Shown here in pieces: positions 13,125 to 25,824 of a stretch of 64,000 nt of DNA (the first letter of the stretch is position 1; each line of letters opens with the position of its first letter). The notes under the pieces are model-generated. The model saw only the letters and a program-made list of their open reading frames with translations, did no database searches and was not told the origin of the DNA. The stretch covers positions 750,012-814,011 of the forward strand of contig CATOSI010000001.1 of the NCBI GenBank assembly GCA_951812505.1, in the 5' to 3' direction. The translations under genes and the position numbers were made by a program. This DNA comes from an uncultured Dehalococcoidia bacterium (GTDB taxonomy: Bacteria; Chloroflexota; Dehalococcoidia; Lucifugimonadales; UBA1123).

Positions 13125-14357
13125 TTAGTATAGGTTAACAGACACTCTTTCTCCCGCATATAGCCCCCCGGAGTCTGCCGGCACTTGTATAAGCCCATGG
13201 GAATTGACCAGGGTGTAGATGAGGTTGGATTTGCCGAATACGGGGGTGGCGCGTGCTTGCCCGTCGGACTTGGACAAGGTTACTGGTACGTAGTCCTCTC
13301 TGCCTGATTCGGAGGGAATATCGGCGGTGAGGATGGCTTCAACCGTGTTTGTCGTGGGCGGGCTGCTTGCTCCGGAGAGTAGGCGGATGGTGGGGGCTAC
13401 CAACAGGTCGAAGACTACGAGCGCGGACACCGGATTGCCTGGGAGTCCGAATAGGGGCTTGCCGTCGGCGACCGCGACTATGGTGGGCTTGCCGGGCTTG
13501 ATTGAGATGCCGTGCAGCAGGACGCCGGGGTTGCCGAGTTGGTTGAATACGTCGGCGGTCATGTCGCGCGTACTGAGTGAGCTTCCGGCTGAGAAGACGA
13601 GGGCATCGGCTGACTGAATCCCTCTGCGGGCGGCCTGGAGTTGGGGTTCGTATTCGTCGGGCGCGAGTCCGATGACGACAGGCTCGGCTCCACACTGGGC
13701 AACGCGGGCCGCGACTGTGTAGGTGTTGATGTCGCGTATTTTGCCCGGAGGCGGTGATACGTCGGGCGGAACGAGTTCGTCGCCGGTGGAGACGATGGCG
13801 ACTCTGGGCCTTCTGAGGACCTCAATCTCCGTAATGCCGAGCGCCAACAGGCCGCCGATGTCCTGGGGGCGGATAGCGTGGCTTGGACTGAATAGCAGGT
13901 CTCCGGCTCGGACATCCTCGCCCTCGTTTACAACGTTTTCACCAGGGGCGACGGGACGAAGGATCTCGATGGAGGTATCGTCCGCGGGCTGGGTGCGCTC
14001 GATCATCACAACTGCGTCCGCGTTGCCGGCGAGCATTCCGCCCGTGTAGGCGACAGCGGCTTCCCCGACACTCAGTTCCACATCAGATTCGGCCCCTGTC
14101 GGAATGTCGGCGACTACTTCCATCATAGCGGGGAGGGTCTCGGACGCGCCGAAGGTGTCGCGGGCGCGCACTGAGAAGCCGTCCATGGAGGACTTAGGAA
14201 ACGAGGGCAGGTCTTCGGGGGAGCGTATTTGGTCGGCGATTACGCGGCCCAGCGCGGACGTAGTGGGTATGGTCTCACGCTCGCTTATGGCGAAGATGTG
14301 TGGGCGCAGGTCGTCGAAGGCCTGGGAGGGTGAACGAACGTTGAAAAATTCGGGCAT
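13125..14357 (-). CDS. moeA: Molybdopterin molybdenumtransferase
   Basis: 410 aa with canonical MoeA motifs: PSFPKSSMDGFSV, GEDV, TGDEL and GLPGNPVSA. Confidence 0.88.
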   Translation of the reverse strand: MPEFFNVRSPSQAFDDLRPHIFAISERETIPTTSALGRVIADQIRSPEDLPSFPKSSMDGFSVRARDTFGASETLPAMMEVVADIPTGAESDVELSVGEAAVAYTGGMLAGNADAVVMIERTQPADDTSIEILRPVAPGENVVNEGEDVRAGDLLFSPSHAIRPQDIGGLLALGITEIEVLRRPRVAIVSTGDELVPPDVSPPPGKIRDINTYTVAARVAQCGAEPVVIGLAPDEYEPQLQAARRGIQSADALVFSAGSSLSTRDMTADVFNQLGNPGVLLHGISIKPGKPTIVAVADGKPLFGLPGNPVSALVVFDLLVAPTIRLLSGASSPPTTNTVEAILTADIPSESGREDYVPVTLSKSDGQARATPVFGKSNLIYTLVNSHGLIQVPADSGGLYAGERVSVNLY

Positions 14358-14396
14358 TTTCTCTCCGTCCGTCGGTACAAGTATGGGTTTAACGGA

Positions 14397-14798
14397 TTAT
14401 ATGCTTTGGCGTATCTCAATGCCGTCGCTGGGAAAGCGTCGGTCGAATGTGTAGATGGCACTCGCGCCGTCGGTGCGGGCGGCGGCCCAAATCATGGCGT
14501 CGGCTATGGACACTCTTCCTGACGGGCGGCACATCTCCAAGCCCCGCAGAACGAGACTCTTATCCAGAGCGTAGGTAGATATGTTGTCTCTTTCTACCAA
14601 GTCTATGAGGCTGTCAACCACTTCCGAGCGGGACTTGCCATAGACTGACGTAAGCACAAAAGCGGTTTCCCCCAAGATGCCTTCCGTGATGGCGAGGTCA
14701 TCAACTTCTTCTATGATTTGGGTCGCTTGGTTCGACATTTCGGGCTGGTCGTTTGTTAAATAGCGAACGATCACGCTAGTGTTAAGGAAGACGCCCAT
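14397..14798 (-). CDS. vapC: PIN-domain toxin (VapC-like)
   Basis: The start ATG at 14798 (MGVFLNTSVIVRYL...) overlaps the antitoxin stop as ATGA. The C-terminus reads ...IYTFDRRF. The track ORF extends upstream into the antitoxin gene. Confidence 0.8.
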   Translation of the reverse strand: MGVFLNTSVIVRYLTNDQPEMSNQATQIIEEVDDLAITEGILGETAFVLTSVYGKSRSEVVDSLIDLVERDNISTYALDKSLVLRGLEMCRPSGRVSIADAMIWAAARTDGASAIYTFDRRFPSDGIEIRQSI

Positions 14799-18040: not shown

Positions 18041-18835
18041 ATGAAAGAACGCGGAGATACGATTATCGGCGAGGGAACCATCAAGTTTGGTATCGAGTAC
18101 AGGGACCTGCTTCACGATCAGGGCGTGTGCATCCATGTTCTGGGCGACGTCAGCGAGGACGACGAGCACGAGCTTCTCAGGTTCGACTGCTTCGACCATG
18201 AGCCTCACTACCACTATGGGCCGCAACAGTTGAATGAAAGGCTCATGCTGGACAAGACGACGGCCGGCGACTCGCTGGACTGGACGCTGGGCAATATCCG
18301 AAGTCGGCTGCCCGAAATGATAGATAGGGCGCGGTATCCCGAACTGGCTGAGGCAGCGCGGGATGCTGATCTGTCTGCCGAGATGGATGAGCTTGAGTCG
18401 CAGGCTCGGGCGCTGTCTGTGTCGGGTCGGCGAACGGTCATGCACGACCGCGGCGACGTCATCCTGGAAGCGGGACCTGTACGGTTCGGCGTGGAGTTCA
18501 GGACGCTGGCTAACGACCGGGGCGTGGCAATCCACGTGCTGGGAGACATCGGAGATGAAGAGCAGGAACTGCTAACGTTCGACTGCTTCGAAGTAGCGCC
18601 ACACTATCACTACGGACCGAGGGCGAAGAACCAGCGGCTGTACCTGGACATGACGACCGTCCCGGACCCGCTGGGATGGGCGCTCGACCTGTTCAAGGGT
18701 GGCAAGCTGGGCACCATGCTCGAGAGAGCGGGTTACACCGACCACGCCGCCCGTCTGAACCCGGCGCTAGTCGCAAGCGCGGTTACCGAGCTTGAGAGCG
18801 TGTCCAGGGAGATGGAGACAGCGAACGCTCAGTAG
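18041..18835 (+). CDS. Hypothetical protein built from two tandem homologous domains of about 125 aa (FDCF-x3-PHYHYGP motif)
   Basis: 264 aa. Residues 3-125 and 135-260 align at about 40-45% identity by eye: GD.I...G...FG.E.R.L..D.GV.IHVLGD...E..ELL.FDCF...PHYHYGP. A GAGAGGAG RBS lies upstream. Confidence 0.7.
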   Translation: MKERGDTIIGEGTIKFGIEYRDLLHDQGVCIHVLGDVSEDDEHELLRFDCFDHEPHYHYGPQQLNERLMLDKTTAGDSLDWTLGNIRSRLPEMIDRARYPELAEAARDADLSAEMDELESQARALSVSGRRTVMHDRGDVILEAGPVRFGVEFRTLANDRGVAIHVLGDIGDEEQELLTFDCFEVAPHYHYGPRAKNQRLYLDMTTVPDPLGWALDLFKGGKLGTMLERAGYTDHAARLNPALVASAVTELESVSREMETANAQ

Positions 18836-20306: not shown

Positions 20307-20361
20307 GCGTTGAGTTTACAGGAGTGGGGAAGAGGTAATCAATTTGGGGAGGGCGCGTTCG

Positions 20362-21099
20362 TCATTCGCCGCTCAGCCGTTCCAATTCGGCTTCCAACTC
20401 GGCGACGCGTCGTTCGGCAACTGCGCGCGCTACGCGTTCGGACTCGACGCGTTGTTCGGCGGACTGTCGCGCGTCCTCCGACTCATTGAGCGTCGGAAGG
20501 TACTCCCCGCTTACAGGATCGCGGAAGCGTAGAATGCCGTCGTCCCACCAGAACTCCAGACCCAGCCTCTCGCTGTATCCCCAACGACGACCATCCGGCT
20601 CTACGGCTATCTCGATAGGCATATACCTATCATCCACAAGCATGTCGCCCGCCAGAGGCGCGTCGTGATACTCGCCGCCCGACGGGTCGAATCGCCAGTA
20701 TTCGCGCACGCCATATCCGGCGTAGCGTTCGCGCTTGTCGGTGTAGTCTTGTCTGCCCGTACCCTCGGAACCAACTTCCAGAACCAGATCGGGAGGCTTG
20801 CCCACCTCGCTTATCACGTAGCCGTTGCGGTGGAATATCCTCTCCGCGCCGTCCAACCCCTCGGCGAATACGCCGTCCGGATAGGGGCCGCTCCTGTCAT
20901 CCGCATCGGCCCACAGGTAGCCAAGCGCCCCCACAAAAACGTCGTCCCTGTCCTTGAACCACAAGCAGAGAGCCGAGGTGAAAGCGTTGATGCCTGGATA
21001 CTGCTTCATCATGTCAGGCTGCCTCGGGGGATCCGGCAGAGGCTTGACGTTCGAGTAGTCTGGTACTCGGATTTTTGTGAGTACACTCTGTGTAGCCAT
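20362..21099 (-). CDS. Uma2-family (DUF820) PD-(D/E)xK endonuclease-like protein with coiled-coil tail
   Basis: 245 aa. The core reads PDLVLEVGSEGTGRQDYTDKRERYAGYGVREYWRFDPSG. The C-terminus is Ala/Glu/Arg-rich. Confidence 0.82.
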   Translation of the reverse strand: MATQSVLTKIRVPDYSNVKPLPDPPRQPDMMKQYPGINAFTSALCLWFKDRDDVFVGALGYLWADADDRSGPYPDGVFAEGLDGAERIFHRNGYVISEVGKPPDLVLEVGSEGTGRQDYTDKRERYAGYGVREYWRFDPSGGEYHDAPLAGDMLVDDRYMPIEIAVEPDGRRWGYSERLGLEFWWDDGILRFRDPVSGEYLPTLNESEDARQSAEQRVESERVARAVAERRVAELEAELERLSGE

Positions 21100-21272
21100 G
21101 GTCGTGTTCTCCGCGAGACTCTCTCACCTGGGTCTCCGTTTAGTCAGCGTTGTGCGTGGCAATTATAACACTGGCTCGGCACTGGCAATAGGGCGACACG
21201 CTAGATATGGCGGTGTGGTGTGTTGGCTATTGCTGTCAGAATCAGGATTTTCGGGCCTGTTCAAGGGTCAAT

Positions 21273-21331
21273 GGAATTCCGCTTTCAAGGGAATGATGCT
21301 AGTTGTGCGAAGTCTCCTTCCTCTGGAATAA
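21273..21331. repeat. Degenerate copy of the GGATTCCCGC/GCGGGAAT palindromic repeat plus the GTTGTGCGAAG-TCTCC module
   Basis: ggaattccgctttcaagggaatgatg is followed by ctagttgtgcgaagtctcc. Compare 49786-49848 and 30933-30960. Confidence 0.55.
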
Positions 21332-21340
21332 TAGGTCAAT

Positions 21341-22435
21341 TTACTTGATCACCGTCAGATACGGTGGCCTATCTCGATACCAATGGTAATATTCATCAGG
21401 ACTTATCGCCAAGAGTCGCATTATATTTTCATCCGAATACTCTAATTTTTCTCTATAAAATTGAACTATAGCCTTTACTAGGCGTGGTTCTTCCCAGGGA
21501 GGGTCTAATTCTATGGGCTCACGTGTGCGATACCCGTGAGACGAGAGACGCACAAACCAAGATCTACGCTGTCTGTCCGTCAAGTTTCCTAAACTATGTG
21601 CTCGCATAATGAGTGCCTGCATTGATACTTTCCAATACTGTTTTAGTGAGGCGAGTTTCTCGAATGTAAGATTAGTAAGTTGTCTTTTGATTTCTCGTTC
21701 AGGTGTCAAAAATTCTGCTGCGAATCTGTCTGCCTCTTCTTCACCAGTTGGTTCAGGGGATTTATAGTGCATGACTATATGCCCTATTTCATGGGCAAGG
21801 GTCCAACGAATACGATCTGGAGGCCTATCTGTGTTTAGGAAAAACAACGACGGTAAAGTAGGAACACGTTTACTGAATCCATCAATATGCCGAGTACCAA
21901 ATCTGCAAAGAAAAACTACTCCACCTGATCTCTCTACAATCTGTACTATATTTCTTACAGGTCCAGACGGAAGATGCCAGGCCGCTCTTACTATGGCGGC
22001 AATTCTCTCGACTGATCCGTCAAAATCATCAGGGTCATGAGATGGGAACATTGCATCCCCAATATCAACAGCTCTTAATAATTTTTCCAAATGTATCCGA
22101 CGAATCTCAGATTCAGCATAAGATTTATTAAGAATACTCACCTTAGCCTTACGACGTGCTCTGTGATATATTTCATCACCGCCAGCCCCATAAATCTCTC
22201 CCGTATATTGGAAGAAATTTTCTGGATAGCTAAGAACATCAGAAATTCTAGATATATCTTCACGGGAAGGGATGTTTATGCCAGCTTCTATCCGAGAAAT
22301 TTTCCCCTGCGAAAATCCAAGTGAACGGGCAAGCGAACTTTGCGACAGTCCCCTGGACTGTCGCGCCAGCAATAGCATCTCCGAATTAAATCTATTTAAG
22401 TCTTCTAATGAATCATCCTTCATTGGCAGTCTCAC
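21341..22435 (-). CDS. XRE-type HTH fused to an ImmA/IrrE (COG2856) zinc metallopeptidase
   Basis: 364 aa. The HTH reads LLLARQSRGLSQSSLARSLGFSQGKISRIEAG. The zinc site is the HExxH motif LAHEIGHIVMH plus a downstream EEEADRFAAEFL. The DNA is AT-rich; one hand-counted 100-nt sample gave about 36% G+C. Confidence 0.85.
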   Translation of the reverse strand: MRLPMKDDSLEDLNRFNSEMLLLARQSRGLSQSSLARSLGFSQGKISRIEAGINIPSREDISRISDVLSYPENFFQYTGEIYGAGGDEIYHRARRKAKVSILNKSYAESEIRRIHLEKLLRAVDIGDAMFPSHDPDDFDGSVERIAAIVRAAWHLPSGPVRNIVQIVERSGGVVFLCRFGTRHIDGFSKRVPTLPSLFFLNTDRPPDRIRWTLAHEIGHIVMHYKSPEPTGEEEADRFAAEFLTPEREIKRQLTNLTFEKLASLKQYWKVSMQALIMRAHSLGNLTDRQRRSWFVRLSSHGYRTREPIELDPPWEEPRLVKAIVQFYREKLEYSDENIMRLLAISPDEYYHWYRDRPPYLTVIK

Positions 22436-23060
22436 TCGTGACTCGGGCCCTTATTGTCGGAGTGATGTCATCTTCAGGAGGATGTGTAACTAAATCTGTA
22501 ATTTGTGCAAGTGAATCATCGTAGAGTTGCCATGTCCAGATATTACGATTTCCATCAGGCATCGTCACATATATAGCGGCGGCGGATGTTCGCGTAGGAT
22601 TGAGAAGATAGCCTAATGTAAGACTGGCAACTGGGGGCATATGTGGCAATTCACTCTGATAATCTTGGTGGTTAAACAAAACCGCTTGTTGAGTTGGGAT
22701 ATTACGGGACCTCATGTTCTCATCTAATTTCTTGAACCGCAGTGTTGCCGATAGTGCCCCATCAGACACGTAGTAGTAATACAGCCCTTGACTGTACCTA
22801 GGTATGAACTGATCCAAACAGCTAAGTCTATCACTTGCGAGACCAATCATTATGTCGTGGATTATGCTGGCGTCGGAACGCTTCCCGAGTCGGTAGCGTA
22901 CAGAAGCAAAATCTTGAGTGTACAATCTAACAGAGTCAGTAGGTATTCTAAAGAGGATACTCTCATGTGGAGCAAGAAGTTCCATCGCTTGGTCTTTGCG
23001 CATATGCGTCATGATGACATTCCTCTGAAGAGTGATTCTATGGATTATATATATATCCAT
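22413..23060 (-). CDS. Hypothetical protein (no recognisable domain), translationally coupled upstream partner of the HTH-ImmA/IrrE gene
   Basis: 215-aa ORF; an alternative start is the Met at 23012. It overlaps the downstream gene by 23 nt and has the same AT-rich composition. Confidence 0.55.
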   Translation of the reverse strand: MDIYIIHRITLQRNVIMTHMRKDQAMELLAPHESILFRIPTDSVRLYTQDFASVRYRLGKRSDASIIHDIMIGLASDRLSCLDQFIPRYSQGLYYYYVSDGALSATLRFKKLDENMRSRNIPTQQAVLFNHQDYQSELPHMPPVASLTLGYLLNPTRTSAAAIYVTMPDGNRNIWTWQLYDDSLAQITDLVTHPPEDDITPTIRARVTSETANEG

Positions 23061-23114
23061 TTATGCGACTGTACCAGAGGGGGACGTCAAACATCAAGTA
23101 TTTTATGCACATAT

Positions 23115-23425
23115 TTATGCACAATCTCTGAACCATCTATCAGACGTCACCAGCACGAACCCCGCTATCTGCCGTGCTATGTCTGTGAAGTGCTGGACTT
23201 CCTCCGGCGTGAGTGAGCGGCCCAGGATTTGGCGCTCGCGATAGGAGAGCCACTTTTGAGTACATGGTAGCCACCGAGCTTGTAGTTCCAGACGGCGGCG
23301 GGGGCGTTCTTCCAGTAGGGGCGGTCGTTGAGGTAGATGTCGAAGGTGGTCCGTCCCAGGGTGGGAATGGCGTCGGAAAGCGCGGCGCGTACGGCGGCGT
23401 TAAGGTGTCGGCGAGTCATGGGCAT
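23115..23425 (-). pseudogene. C-terminal remnant of a type IIG / type ISP / BREX-PglX-like DNA methyltransferase-restriction enzyme, frameshifted
   Basis: The track ORF reads ...DIYLNDRPYWKNAPAAVWNYKLGGYHVLK. A shift at the A4 run (plus-strand T4 at 23254-23257) restores KWLSYRERQILGRSLTPEEVQHFTDIARQIAGF...*, with the stop at 23115-23117. The VW-x-Y-x-hGGYxVLxKWLxYR...GRxLT motif is the conserved C-terminal tail of this enzyme class. No methylase or helicase body lies upstream. Confidence 0.6.
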
Positions 23426-23789
23426 TGGGGGATGCGTTCTTGGTTCAGGACGAAATGGCGGTGAGAGTGGCAGTAGATGGGTCTGGGCTGCGAGCCGCGC
23501 TCGCCCGTGCGGACACGGGAGGCACTCGCAGGTGTTCAGCCCAGACCCGTCGTGAATTCGGCACTCGATTCGGGTTCAAGCACTGACCGATGATAACATA
23601 CTCGCGCTTGGCGCTCACTCTTATCCCGCTAGACCGATACAGACCCGCCTTCCCGATTCGGTTATACAACCTCGTCTCCGATACGCTACAATACACCCAT
23701 GAAGAACACAATTTCTAGCGTCGCTGACATAAATGAGAGGTTATATAAATGGAAGAATCGAGGCTCCGAAGAATTTTTATGTAGCTAAA

Positions 23790-23866
23790 CTCAGGCGTTC
23801 TCAGGTCAAACTCAGGTGACGTTTTCACCTGTTGGTCACTAGTTGACCCACCTGTTATCACCTGTG
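23790..23866. promoter_or_regulatory. Array of phased CTCAGG / CACCTGT boxes including a perfect inverted repeat (operator-, iteron- or arm-site-like) upstream of aroC
   Basis: CTCAGG occurs at 23790, 23800 and 23811. The inverted repeat is CAGGTGA-cgttt-TCACCTG (23813-23831). CACCTGT occurs at 23826, 23849 and 23859. CAGGTG is the reverse complement of CACCTG. Confidence 0.4.
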
Positions 23867-23952
23867 GCTTTATAAATTGGCATATATAGACATCGGACGC
23901 GGGAAGCGGTTGTCAAGTTGATGCGGTGTCATTGTCGGCATGGGAGTGAGAG

Positions 23953-25141: not shown

Positions 25142-25389
25142 GACCCTGTGGGCGTCTGAAGCGAGTCCATTGGCGAGTTGCTGTAAGTGCTGGTGTCCAT
25201 CAGGAATTAGAAGGACCCTGTGGGCGTCTGAAGCGAGTCCATTGGCGAGAGTGGCGGTCGGTGTGTTTCGATGGAACGCCAGCCTGTTGATGCTCAGGGC
25301 GTTCTAAGTTCCTCCACCATAATAGCATTGGTAAGCTCTTCCGATTCTCGTTCGCCTGTTGATGCTCAGGGCGTTCTAAGTTCCTCCAC
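25142..25389. repeat. Two adjacent pairs of exact 36-bp direct repeats, each pair separated by a 36-bp spacer (period 72)
   Basis: Repeat A (gaccctgtgggcgtctgaagcgagtccattggcgag) lies at 25142-25177 and 25214-25249. Repeat B (gcctgttgatgctcagggcgttctaagttcctccac) lies at 25282-25317 and 25354-25389. A and B are unrelated to each other. Confidence 0.9.
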
Positions 25390-25622
25390 TCTCTCGCTTC
25401 GCGTATATCCAGCCACAGTCCGACTGAGCCAAATGCTATGGGCACTAGGATGATGGCCCAAAAAGCGGCATCCACGATCCTAAAATGGTCATCTATGGTC
25501 AAAAAATCGGGATCCGAGGTTCGATACCCGTTCATTGACCCGCCCAGCAACCCCAGAAACAAATAGATAATCCCGACGGTGAACATCAGTCCGAGGATCA
25601 CTCCGGTTAGTGTCCTACGCAT
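25200..25622 (-). CDS. Small membrane protein (2 TM helices) whose C-terminal tail runs into the 36-bp repeat region
   Basis: The start MRRTLTGVILGLMFTVGIIYLF lies at 25622, 8 nt after a GGGAGG RBS. A second helix reads AAFWAIILVPIAFGSVGLW. The tail contains a duplicated WRNLERPEHQQA encoded by repeat B. Confidence 0.5.
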   Translation of the reverse strand: MRRTLTGVILGLMFTVGIIYLFLGLLGGSMNGYRTSDPDFLTIDDHFRIVDAAFWAIILVPIAFGSVGLWLDIREAREWRNLERPEHQQANENRKSLPMLLWWRNLERPEHQQAGVPSKHTDRHSRQWTRFRRPQGPSNS

Positions 25623-25824
25623 TAAGGAAGCCTCCCATGGCTCTGGAGTAATTGGCTTCCAACATTCTACTACATGATGACGCTCTACGCGCATTCAACA
25701 ACGCAACGCCCAAGGCTTTTGCTGTGAAGAATGGATCGGAAGCGGGTGGGTGGAGTGCCGGAGACGGTCGGGTGGGACAGAGCACCGCCCCCGGAGCCTT
25801 GAGTAGCCTATAACATGTGAGCGG

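Follow-up and report, generated by a model that had tools for sequence, protein, structure and literature searches.

The window analysed here, a stretch of 64,000 nucleotides, contains two overlapping minus-strand genes of low G+C content within a Dehalococcoidia chromosome, and the question raised by this locus is what the upstream gene does beside a gene for an HTH protein with a zinc-peptidase domain. A first-pass annotation had proposed that the upstream gene is a candidate effector or toxin under the control of the ImmA/IrrE-HTH protein, and had left the system unnamed. The analysis described below supports this proposal and suggests a name: with a probability of roughly 0.75, the cassette is a two-gene, toxin-first type II TA module of the Rosmer type (RmrT/RmrA-like).

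Results

An AT-rich cassette in a variable chromosomal island

The two 100-nt samples by which the drop in G+C had first been noticed are exact (0.36 at 21361-21460 and 0.68 at 20401-20500), though both are extremes. Mean G+C is 0.43 for the cassette (0.45 for the toxin gene, 0.42 for rmrA), 0.575 for the window and approximately 0.58-0.63 for the immediate flanks. The low-G+C block extends from about 21150 to about 23130 and comprises both genes together with their promoter region; the Dehalococcoidia chromosome around this 43% G+C block has about 58-60% G+C. An abrupt fall by 15 points in a MAG-type genome, together with a 199- or 215-aa ORF that carries no database annotation, might betray an assembly chimera or a contaminant, or else a spurious reading frame. 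This explanation is already refuted and its probability is negligible: the same junctions and the same gene order (aroC, island, cassette, Uma2, MFS) recur in independent assemblies of other samples (L008 and L009), dN/dS of the toxin gene is 0.19-0.24, and the encoded protein has a confident AlphaFold (AF2) model and more than 1,000 homologous clusters. For rmrA, dN/dS is 0.10-0.11, and purifying selection acts on both genes. In comparison with L008 and L009, synonymous divergence (dS) of the cassette is about equal to that of the flanking genes, and a very recent transfer was therefore rejected as the cause of the low G+C content. The horizontal acquisition proposed earlier is supported, but it did not take place recently.

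The cassette is part of a variable island of about 3.1 kb (20349-23470), which is otherwise made up of a Uma2 gene and a Type ISP remnant and is inserted at a hotspot flanked by aroC and an MFS gene. Backbone homology ends at about 23471 and resumes at about 20348, an empty site in L021 joins both island ends within about 16 nt, and in approximately 20 related species the gap between aroC and the MFS gene measures only 320-650 bp. Both neighbours named in the first-pass annotation were found again. The Uma2-family (PD-(D/E)XK-like) gene (20362-21099, minus strand; Pfam Uma2, 2.4e-15; PADLOC candidate PDC-S03, 3e-10) is a separate component of the island, accompanied by the cassette in some sister genomes and not in others. 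The C-terminal remnant of a Type ISP/IIG restriction-modification gene (23145-23425, minus strand; Type_ISP_C, 4e-4) has 87% DNA identity to the 3' end of the gene for an intact 1,124-aa enzyme in L013. The hotspot-like context suspected earlier is borne out by sister genomes, in which the same site holds restriction-modification systems and other genes (Type ISP; MamI plus methylase; methylase plus MTaX1-HNH; HicB). Neither a tRNA nor an Rfam family was detected at the island border. The cassette is located in a small chromosomal defence islet, and it is an independent unit, since in L006 and L011 the approximately 2-kb cassette stands alone at the same insertion point.

Gene starts, overlap and upstream region

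The two overlapping minus-strand ORFs are both present where the first-pass annotation had placed them, and only the length of 215 aa given for the upstream product gives way to a shorter one. The toxin gene (proposed RmrT-like; 22413-23012, 199 aa plus stop) most likely starts at ATG 23012 and not at ATG 23060, because the equivalent Met (M17 of the 215-aa reading) is the called start in 8/8 close homologues, as judged by gene calls and alignment, and because a GAGGA ribosome binding site (RBS) lies 8 nt upstream of ATG 23012. ATG 23060 is part of a palindrome that closely follows a promoter-like element. The downstream gene, rmrA (21341-22423, 360 aa), most likely starts at ATG 22423 rather than at GTG 22435. 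As read from the sequence, the two genes share 11 nt (ATGAAGGATGA, 22413-22423, minus strand), which include the toxin stop codon (22413-22415). An 11-nt overlap is likewise called in L001-L007, and overlap or near-abutment of the two genes is found in nearly all loci of the family. The overlap indicates an operon, in which translation of the toxin and of rmrA is likely to be coupled. Generic traits of type II TA modules are found as well: a small bicistronic overlapping operon, an HTH antitoxin, mobility, and a patchy distribution among close relatives.

Upstream of the toxin gene, a direct repeat of the form GTGCATAAA-TAT-GTGCATAAA (23102-23122, minus strand; listed as D19) occurs only once in the window, where 0 matches are expected by chance, and its core is invariant in 7/7 Dehalococcoidia-type copies of the cassette, including copies in unrelated genomic contexts (alignment A3). 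These repeats are probably the operator of the RmrA HTH and are put forward as a candidate. HTH dimers less commonly bind operators built of direct repeats. The repeats abut a promoter-like element (23068-23097, minus strand), read from the sequence as TTGATG (23092-23097), an 18-nt spacer and TACAGT (23068-23073), of which the TAnnnT and CTTGA positions are kept in A3. A strict sigma-70 consensus scan did not call a cassette promoter, so that the assignment is tentative. Between the promoter and the RBS lies the palindrome ATGGAT-ATATATATA-ATCCAT (23040-23060, minus strand), which contains ATG 23060; its function is uncertain because it is not kept in the more distant copies. The candidate promoter/operator block is conserved and moves along with the cassette.

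The downstream gene encodes a predicted RmrA antitoxin

The rmrA product combines an XRE-type HTH (residues ~19-73), an M78/ImmA-IrrE zinc peptidase (~168-279) with the HEIGH motif, and a C-terminal extension. Pfam matches to HTH_3 (2.5e-10) and Peptidase_M78 (2.6e-16) agree with the XRE HTH and COG2856 Zn-peptidase recognised at first sight. The protein matches 14/14 RmrA models of PADLOC, with a full-length match to PDLC03949 (3.4e-63, residues 16-348 of 364), and phrog_2439 of PHROGs at 2e-83. The category assigned to phrog_2439 is transcription regulation. Partial PADLOC matches link the peptidase region to capP (2.2e-16) and the HTH to capH, and the RmrA models outscore capP by about 45 orders of magnitude. 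NCBIfam NF052239, 'spr1629 family repressor/antitoxin', matches at 2.9e-32 and 112.2 bits, which does not reach its equivalog cut-off of 335 bits. By its PADLOC matches, the downstream protein is an RmrA, the kind of protein that serves as antitoxin in the published RosmerTA family of defence/TA systems.

The upstream gene belongs to a large family outside the catalogues

No match for the 199-aa protein was obtained in Pfam, NCBIfam or PADLOC, RmrT models included; the window protein itself has no match in PHROGs either, and sequence and profile searches of the PDB returned only noise. The earlier expectation that homologues exist was nevertheless correct. Eight close homologues were found, and an exhaustive profile search yielded 1,157 cluster representatives of ~200 aa, the count being of clusters at 50% identity and amounting to at least 1,150. 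The protein is thereby a member of a large uncharacterised family of ~200-aa soluble alpha/beta proteins that spans Chloroflexota, Bacillota, Actinomycetota and Alpha-, Beta- and Gammaproteobacteria and occurs on plasmids, phages and chromosomes. None of 70 family members matches any PADLOC model at E<=0.01 or any NCBIfam toxin model, while the positive controls do match RmrT models (Tritos gp40, 7.5e-10; upstream gene of phiCD418, 1e-78). Aligned by hhalign with these two catalogued RmrT proteins of phage Tritos and phiCD418, the window toxin gave probabilities of 0.07% and 0.8%. A toxin of the Spr1630/RipA type was rejected, NCBIfam giving no match.

Patterns of the close family found no relative among 185,579 GTDB species representatives; the cassette is found in sister MAGs though absent from these representatives. 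A tblastn search with P0011 gave no phage or plasmid match, and the phage and plasmid members were found by searching with RmrA and inspecting the gene upstream. Further loci were retrieved with a subfamily alignment and a hand-made degenerate pattern (FKK-8aa-NIPTQQ). Culturable members include gp30/31 of Acinetobacter phage ABMM1 (vB_AbaM_ABMM1), gp34/33 of a Gordonia Howe-cluster phage, and pairs borne by plasmids of Rhizobium, Rhodococcus and Polaromonas. Orthologous pairs include gp34/33 of Gordonia phage Howe and WP_012559799/WP_012559800 of R. leguminosarum pRLG203. No RefSeq accession of a family member was found in the examined part of the NetFlax supplement or in the full texts searched; the family may already be catalogued as an anonymous NetFlax node.

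Based on an alignment of 70 sequences, AlphaFold (AF2) modelled the toxin at a pLDDT of 89.8. A model built from the 8-sequence close-family alignment was unusable (pLDDT 48). The conserved polar residues are R45, H52, D53, R92, K94, K95, D97, N104, T107, Q116 and Y135, and the C-terminal tail of about 35 residues is disordered and often basic. No hydrophobic segment is present, and a membrane toxin was rejected. Foldseek searches of PDB and BFVD returned nothing significant (best E > 0.01, TM < 0.3). The non-significant matches include EcoRV, HincII, UL24, a splicing endonuclease, McrC and CinB (E 0.03-0.6, TM<0.3), and the order of secondary-structure elements (H-E-E-E-H-E) is compatible with the restriction-endonuclease-like core of the PD-(D/E)XK nuclease superfamily (alpha-beta-beta-beta-alpha-beta), whose catalytic motif is D...(D/E)xK. 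Strands 2 and 3 carry no conserved acidic residue, and the conserved motif on them is R-F-K-K.

The two genes consistently occur as a pair

The first-pass annotation had also asked whether homologues are paired with the HTH-ImmA/IrrE gene and whether their neighbourhoods are defence islands. The adjacency holds in every informative context examined, and the neighbourhoods comprise defence islets, plasmids and phages. In 46/46 DNA loci in which the toxin was detected, across plasmids, phages and six phyla, the next gene on that strand is of the RmrA type and overlaps or abuts the toxin gene on its downstream side. One survey confirmed 45 of these pairs, the 46th being L106, a 1-kb contig with a partial RmrA; redundancy reduces the 46 loci to roughly 40 independent pairs. 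At one further locus, a short pattern-match contig (L119), neither toxin nor RmrA was detected, and two gene-call tables without DNA also show the pairing. The HExxH motif of the peptidase is conserved in 40/40 partners that cover the site.

Decay of the pair is one-sided. A disrupted toxin gene beside an intact RmrA gene was observed at three loci (frameshift in L103, nonsense mutation in L112, frameshift in L125 from Devosia), two of which are metagenomic contigs in which sequencing error is possible; an intact toxin beside a broken RmrA was not seen among the loci examined. In phages the pair adjoins the integrase or repressor region. Curators label some family members 'cI-like repressor' or 'transcriptional regulator'.

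These observations bear on whether the cassette might instead serve as a switch that regulates a mobile element, comparable to ImmR/ImmA of ICEBs1 or IrrE/DdrO. The downstream protein would then act as a repressor that is cleaved or cleaves itself, and the 199-aa protein would not be a toxin but regulated cargo or a co-regulator (anti-repressor or sensor). M78 peptidases are established as anti-repressors in ICEBs1 and Deinococcus, several members lie in phage immunity regions beside an integrase or repressor under the curated names just mentioned, and the category of phrog_2439 points in the same direction. However, the solitary chromosomal cassettes of L006 and L011 have no mobile-element genes to control, both genes stay together whatever their neighbours, HTH and peptidase are fused here and separate in ImmR/ImmA and DdrO/IrrE, and the asymmetric loss of the upstream gene suits a toxin better than a co-regulator. 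We consider such a switch unlikely.

The invariant peptidase site also shows that catalysis matters, as would be expected if the polarity were reversed or three functions were involved, with the peptidase moiety as effector or toxin and the 199-aa protein as inhibitor, adaptor or phage sensor. COG2856 proteins were indeed named toxins in the earlier literature: Makarova 2009 predicted Xre-COG2856 modules with the peptidase as the toxin, and the same was proposed for ZnMP/HTH-Xre of Brucella (PMC2701414, PMC10538038). Against this, the peptidase protein is the antitoxin in tested Rosmer systems, and in the loci examined here the breaks lie in the upstream gene while rmrA is intact, with no case of the converse. 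Reversed polarity appears more improbable still than a regulatory switch.

Discussion

The preferred reading remains a toxin-first module of the Rosmer type. A single promoter would drive the toxin gene and rmrA, with the 11-nt overlap coupling their translation. The 199-aa product would be a toxin that is soluble in the cytoplasm and probably acts as an enzyme, and its predicted toxicity would be neutralised by the 360-aa RmrA, the HTH of which would also repress the operon, probably at the GTGCATAAA direct repeats abutting the -35 element. Given the strict conservation of the peptidase site, proteolysis is presumed to be part of the switch, and it may act on the toxin, on RmrA itself or on a trigger that comes from the phage. 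Once RmrA is inactivated or titrated, for instance by phage infection or upon loss of the element, the toxin would be freed and arrest or kill the cell, resulting in abortive infection or addiction. An anti-phage role of the cassette is probable.

A more far-reaching version of this proposal is possible, though we hold it to be doubtful: the ~200-aa protein might represent a major unrecognised family of toxins or effectors (at least 1,150 clusters, six phyla) with a new fold and activity, obligately wired to RmrA, so that a sizeable share of Rosmer-like systems would go unseen by annotation tools, and the peptidase site and the C-terminal tail might reflect a step of proteolytic activation or inactivation undescribed in any TA class.

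Rosmer is among the least understood defence/TA families, in which one HTH-protease antitoxin is combined with many toxins that are unrelated to each other. The present work defines a large and coherent family of putative toxins that has a confident model, few invariant residues and a conserved candidate operator, and that is absent from Pfam, NCBIfam and PADLOC. Its inclusion in catalogues would improve the annotation of defence systems, and the family offers a tractable, soluble putative toxin for dissecting the mechanism of RmrA. In addition, the aroC-MFS defence hotspot is documented for a lineage of Dehalococcoidia that is uncultured and probably host-associated, and for which few descriptions of immunity exist.

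Among known systems, CapH/CapP of CBASS shares the logic of an HTH repressor and an M78 protease, but there the two are separate proteins and control the CBASS operon next to them; neither the ORF list nor Pfam revealed CBASS genes in the window. ImmR/ImmA of ICEBs1 and DdrO/IrrE of Deinococcus likewise link an M78 (COG2856) fold with HExxH to an XRE-type HTH, but do so as a separate repressor and protease that control an element or a regulon. In the window cassette, HTH and protease are fused and strictly coupled to one upstream gene in a standalone 2-kb unit, and the island holds no separate XRE gene, so the two-protein arrangement of the ImmR/ImmA type does not apply.

RipAB (Spr1630/Spr1629) of Streptococcus pneumoniae comes closer. 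It is toxin-first, RipA targets DnaN and depends on ClpX, RipB neutralises RipA, and its authors class it as Rosmer. The window cassette resembles it in operon order, in an antitoxin that joins an N-terminal XRE part to an ImmA-like C-terminal part, and in the match to NF052239; it differs in that the window RmrA scores far under the equivalog cut-off of that model and that the window toxin gives no sign of a DnaN target or ClpX dependence.

The closest likeness is to RosmerTA, in which a Zn-peptidase antitoxin is combined with diverse unrelated toxins, RmrA neutralises RmrT, the system acts against phages, and a delta-rmrA mutant was not obtainable (Millman et al. 2022; Ernits et al. 2023). 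Rosmer corresponds to NetFlax hub D25, and the toxin-first order is the commoner one (58%; Ernits et al. 2023). Shared with RosmerTA are the antitoxin of ~360 aa with its fused XRE-HTH and M78/ImmA Zn-peptidase, the compact two-gene operon with an adjacent toxin in first position, and the occurrence on phages, plasmids and defence islands. Unlike the RmrTs of Tritos and phiCD418, the window toxin matches no catalogued RmrT model, and it lacks the membrane segment present in the RmrT of Gordonia phage Kita. Because the toxin fails both the RmrT models and hhalign, the suggested membership in Rosmer is drawn from RmrA and the gene architecture only and not from the toxin. A PADLOC rule that depends on RmrT would probably miss the locus, since no RmrT model matches its toxin. 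Rosmer is toxin-diverse by its published definition, so the missing match weighs more on automatic calling than on membership as a concept. The cassette introduces no new principle, its architecture and logic being known already; what is new is a putative toxin family that the catalogues of defence systems have missed.

Two overlapping genes of low GC content

The two overlapping AT-rich minus-strand ORFs described by the first-pass annotation are present at 22413-23060 and 21341-22435, and its two 100-nt GC samples were reproduced exactly on recomputation (0.36 at 21361-21460; 0.68 at 20401-20500), both lying at the extremes of the distribution. Mean GC is 0.43 for the cassette, 0.575 for the window and 0.58-0.63 for adjacent genes, and the low-GC block (~21150-23130) comprises both cassette genes together with the upstream control region. 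The starts first assigned to the ORFs probably need correction. For the upstream gene, the proposed toxin gene, ATG 23012 (199 aa) is most likely the start in place of ATG 23060. Gene calls of 8/8 close homologues begin at the Met that corresponds to it, and GAGGA lies 8 nt upstream; ATG 23060 falls within a palindrome directly after a promoter-like element. The downstream gene, rmrA, most likely starts at ATG 22423 and thus overlaps the proposed toxin stop by 11 nt (ATGAAGGATGA), an overlap called identically in relatives.

A non-coding block upstream of the proposed toxin gene is kept in 7/7 cassette copies, even where the genomic context is unrelated. It was in this region that we found a direct repeat, GTGCATAAA-N3-GTGCATAAA (23102-23122), which occurs nowhere else in the window (0 chance matches expected) and abuts a TTGATG-N18-TACAGT element. 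We infer that repeat and element are a candidate RmrA operator and promoter; a strict promoter scan did not call the element.

The downstream protein is an RmrA-type antitoxin

The downstream protein combines HTH_3 (2.5e-10) and Peptidase_M78 (2.6e-16) Pfam domains, with HEIGH, and is matched over its full length by 14/14 PADLOC RmrA models (best 3.4e-63) and by phrog_2439 (2e-83). RmrA serves as antitoxin in RosmerTA, whose published description pairs a Zn-peptidase antitoxin with a functionally uncharacterised toxin; attempts at a delta-rmrA mutant failed to yield one. Later work identified RmrA as a hub antitoxin (NetFlax D25) whose partners are many unrelated toxins, the toxin coming first in 58% of pairs. 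A recently deposited structure, PDB 9vzy (393-aa 'HTH cro/C1-type domain-containing protein', HTH + M78-like), aligns weakly (E 4e-4) to the RmrA of the window, in a match that runs through the HExxH region, and may be the first RmrA-like structure.

The upstream protein belongs to a large uncatalogued family

The window's upstream protein has no match in Pfam, NCBIfam, PADLOC or PHROGs. A word-indexed search of 5.8 billion proteins returned 8 close relatives at 59-100% identity, none annotated, and no close relative is encoded among the GTDB species representatives scanned. At E<=1e-3 an exhaustive profile search recovered 1,157 cluster representatives of the family, of which 291 pass E<=1e-10; almost all are ~200 aa and align over most of their length. 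Among 70 sampled members none belongs to a credible Pfam, NCBIfam or PADLOC family, and 39 match phrog_15813, a group without an assigned function. In E. coli phage Tritos (7.5e-10) and C. difficile phage phiCD418 (1e-78) the upstream gene is detected by PADLOC RmrT models, which detect 0 members of the present family, whose partners all score as RmrA; the hhalign probabilities of the family profile with these two RmrTs were 0.07% and 0.8%. Within the reach of these tools, the upstream protein is not a catalogued RmrT.

An AlphaFold2 model built from the 70-sequence alignment was confident (pLDDT 89.8, pTM 0.80). The predicted order is two long helices at the N-terminus, a beta meander of three strands, a short helix and three more strands, with a ~35-residue C-terminal tail at low confidence. 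Foldseek searches of PDB and BFVD with this model gave nothing significant (all hits E>0.01, TM<0.3); the hits tilt non-significantly to PD-(D/E)XK nucleases, whose canonical D...(D/E)xK pattern is absent from the protein. It has no hydrophobic segment, and its near-invariant polar residues form an enzyme-like set (R45, H52, D53, R92, K94, K95, D97, N104, T107, Q116, Y135, W159). The low-confidence tail of many members (e.g. loci L121-L123 and L125) carries a basic motif like (K/R)-x-K-(V/L)-K-G with charged residues after it, and the window's protein ends in ...TIRARVTSETANEG; this tail might be a degron or protease site. In two metagenomic loci (L101, 1650-3125; L115, 10838-11815) the toxin domain is C-terminal in longer stop-to-stop ORFs of 491 and 325 aa, which could be real N-terminal fusions or an ORF-extension artefact in high-GC DNA.

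Pairing with RmrA is conserved

The gene contexts surveyed comprised close-family gene calls, four distant members (two as gene-call tables without DNA), annotated plasmids and phages, and 25 further loci from viral and metagenomic collections, recovered by means of a subfamily alignment and of an FKK-8aa-NIPTQQ pattern written by hand. In this survey, the key test of the first-pass annotation's proposal, 46/46 DNA loci with the proposed toxin detected have an RmrA-type gene as the next gene downstream, in the same orientation and either overlapping or abutting it; one check confirmed 45 of them, the 46th being a 1-kb contig (L106) that shows the start of RmrA. Some loci are redundant, leaving ~40 independent pairs. 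The two gene tables show the same pairing, and in one short pattern-match contig (L119) neither gene was detected. HExxH is intact in 40/40 RmrA partners covering the site. Members annotated 'hypothetical protein' are carried by the plasmids Polaromonas pH1NP1 (WP_181375209), Roseicitreum pRA04 (WP_092891858), R. leguminosarum pRLG203 (WP_012559799) and Rhodococcus pLP156 (WP_021334722), by Acinetobacter phage vB_AbaM_ABMM1 (gp30) and by Gordonia Howe-cluster phages (gp34, beside a tyrosine integrase). RmrA homologues below ~31% identity have different upstream genes, at least two of them catalogued RmrTs, and the association is therefore specific to this RmrA clade.

A disrupted proposed toxin gene accompanies an intact rmrA in two metagenomic contigs (L103, frameshift; L112, in-frame stop) and a Devosia plasmid (frameshift), and the reverse case was not found among the loci examined. 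Such asymmetric decay is what a toxin/antitoxin pair would predict, although the sample is small (n=3) and two of the three cases come from metagenomic contigs.

The cassette occupies a defence hotspot

Chorismate synthase (97% identity) placed the host among Dehalococcoidia MAGs. Backbone homology stops at ~23471 and resumes at ~20348; in an empty site (L021) both points are joined within ~16 nt, and in ~20 related species the gap is 320-650 bp only. The window's island (~3.1 kb) consists of a Uma2-family gene, the cassette and a 3' remnant (~80 codons) of a gene for a Type ISP restriction-modification (R-M) enzyme. The cassette stands alone at the same insertion point in L006 and L011, and together with R-M genes in two independent assemblies (L008, L009). 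Sister genomes carry here an intact Type ISP enzyme (1,105-1,124 aa), MamI with a methylase, a methylase with MTaX1-HNH, HicB, or an FRG-pentapeptide protein. These contents make the site a genuine defence hotspot. Neither a tRNA nor an Rfam element was found at it. The Uma2-family gene (20362-21099, minus strand; PADLOC candidate PDC-S03, 3e-10) occurs at the hotspot with or without a Rosmer-like cassette (window, L008, L009, L015-L017) and is therefore an independent island module.

The boundary segment 23471-23611, backbone kept in all relatives including empty sites and without tRNA/Rfam match, is predicted to fold into a long GC-rich hairpin (arms 23476-23490/23537-23551; MFE -62.8 kcal/mol, z = -2.6) that could be a recombination target of the hotspot, a terminator or a small RNA. 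In a sister genome hotspot (L013, 2394-3776) a 460-aa pentapeptide-repeat + FRG protein, which may be defence-associated, adjoins the intact Type ISP enzyme.

Against L008 and L009, dN/dS is 0.19-0.24 for the proposed toxin gene, 0.10-0.11 for rmrA and 0.02 for aroC; by this measure both are real genes evolving faster than housekeeping genes. The cassette genes (dS 0.56-0.78) have diverged at synonymous sites about as far as the flanks (0.6-1.2), so the cassette predates the split of these lineages, and its low GC does not point to very recent transfer. Cassette GC is 0.43-0.49 in every Dehalococcoidia copy versus 0.57-0.61 in flanks, and equals the surroundings in one Bacillota contig and another high-GC contig, a distribution consistent with a lower-GC donor.

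Several neighbouring features were also recorded. Upstream of aroC, an AT-rich region (23700-23950, GC ~0.44), conserved at DNA level in L016 and L008, contains direct repeats with CAGGTG cores (GTTTTCACCTGT, 23821-23832; GTTATCACCTGT, 23854-23865) and may be an aroC regulatory site. A 164-aa predicted membrane protein (25200-25694, minus strand) has the peptide WRNLERPEHQQA in in-frame tandem duplication; its gene has a weak match in one relative only (L023) and is therefore variable. At 18041-18835 (plus strand) lies the gene for a two-domain DUF7700 protein (E 6e-76); throughout the Dehalococcoidia clade it is conserved beside those for an MFS_3 transporter and a Zn-dependent alcohol dehydrogenase. 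A cassette allele of 59% identity (P0007; L001-L005, ~13711-14555; L012, 5258-5995) lies in an IS-rich region (IS110, IS21, IS256-like), near a DUF6932 + HTH_3 pair resembling a further TA module; in L012 a PIN-domain pair is found close to the cassette copy.

Relation to known Rosmer systems

Judged from these comparisons, the most fitting description of the locus is a Rosmer-type TA module with a probable abortive-infection role, and the first-pass proposal of a candidate effector or toxin controlled by an ImmA/IrrE-HTH protein is supported. The architecture and logic of the module are already known; new are the proposed toxin family, its probably unusual predicted fold and its putative activity. 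On present profile evidence this family is large and unnamed, and current defence catalogues hold no model for it. Among known systems, RipAB (Spr1629/Spr1630), also of Rosmer type, has its toxin gene first, and this toxin acts on the DnaN clamp; the window's RmrA scores 112 bits with the NCBIfam 'spr1629 family antitoxin' model, far under its cut-off of 335.
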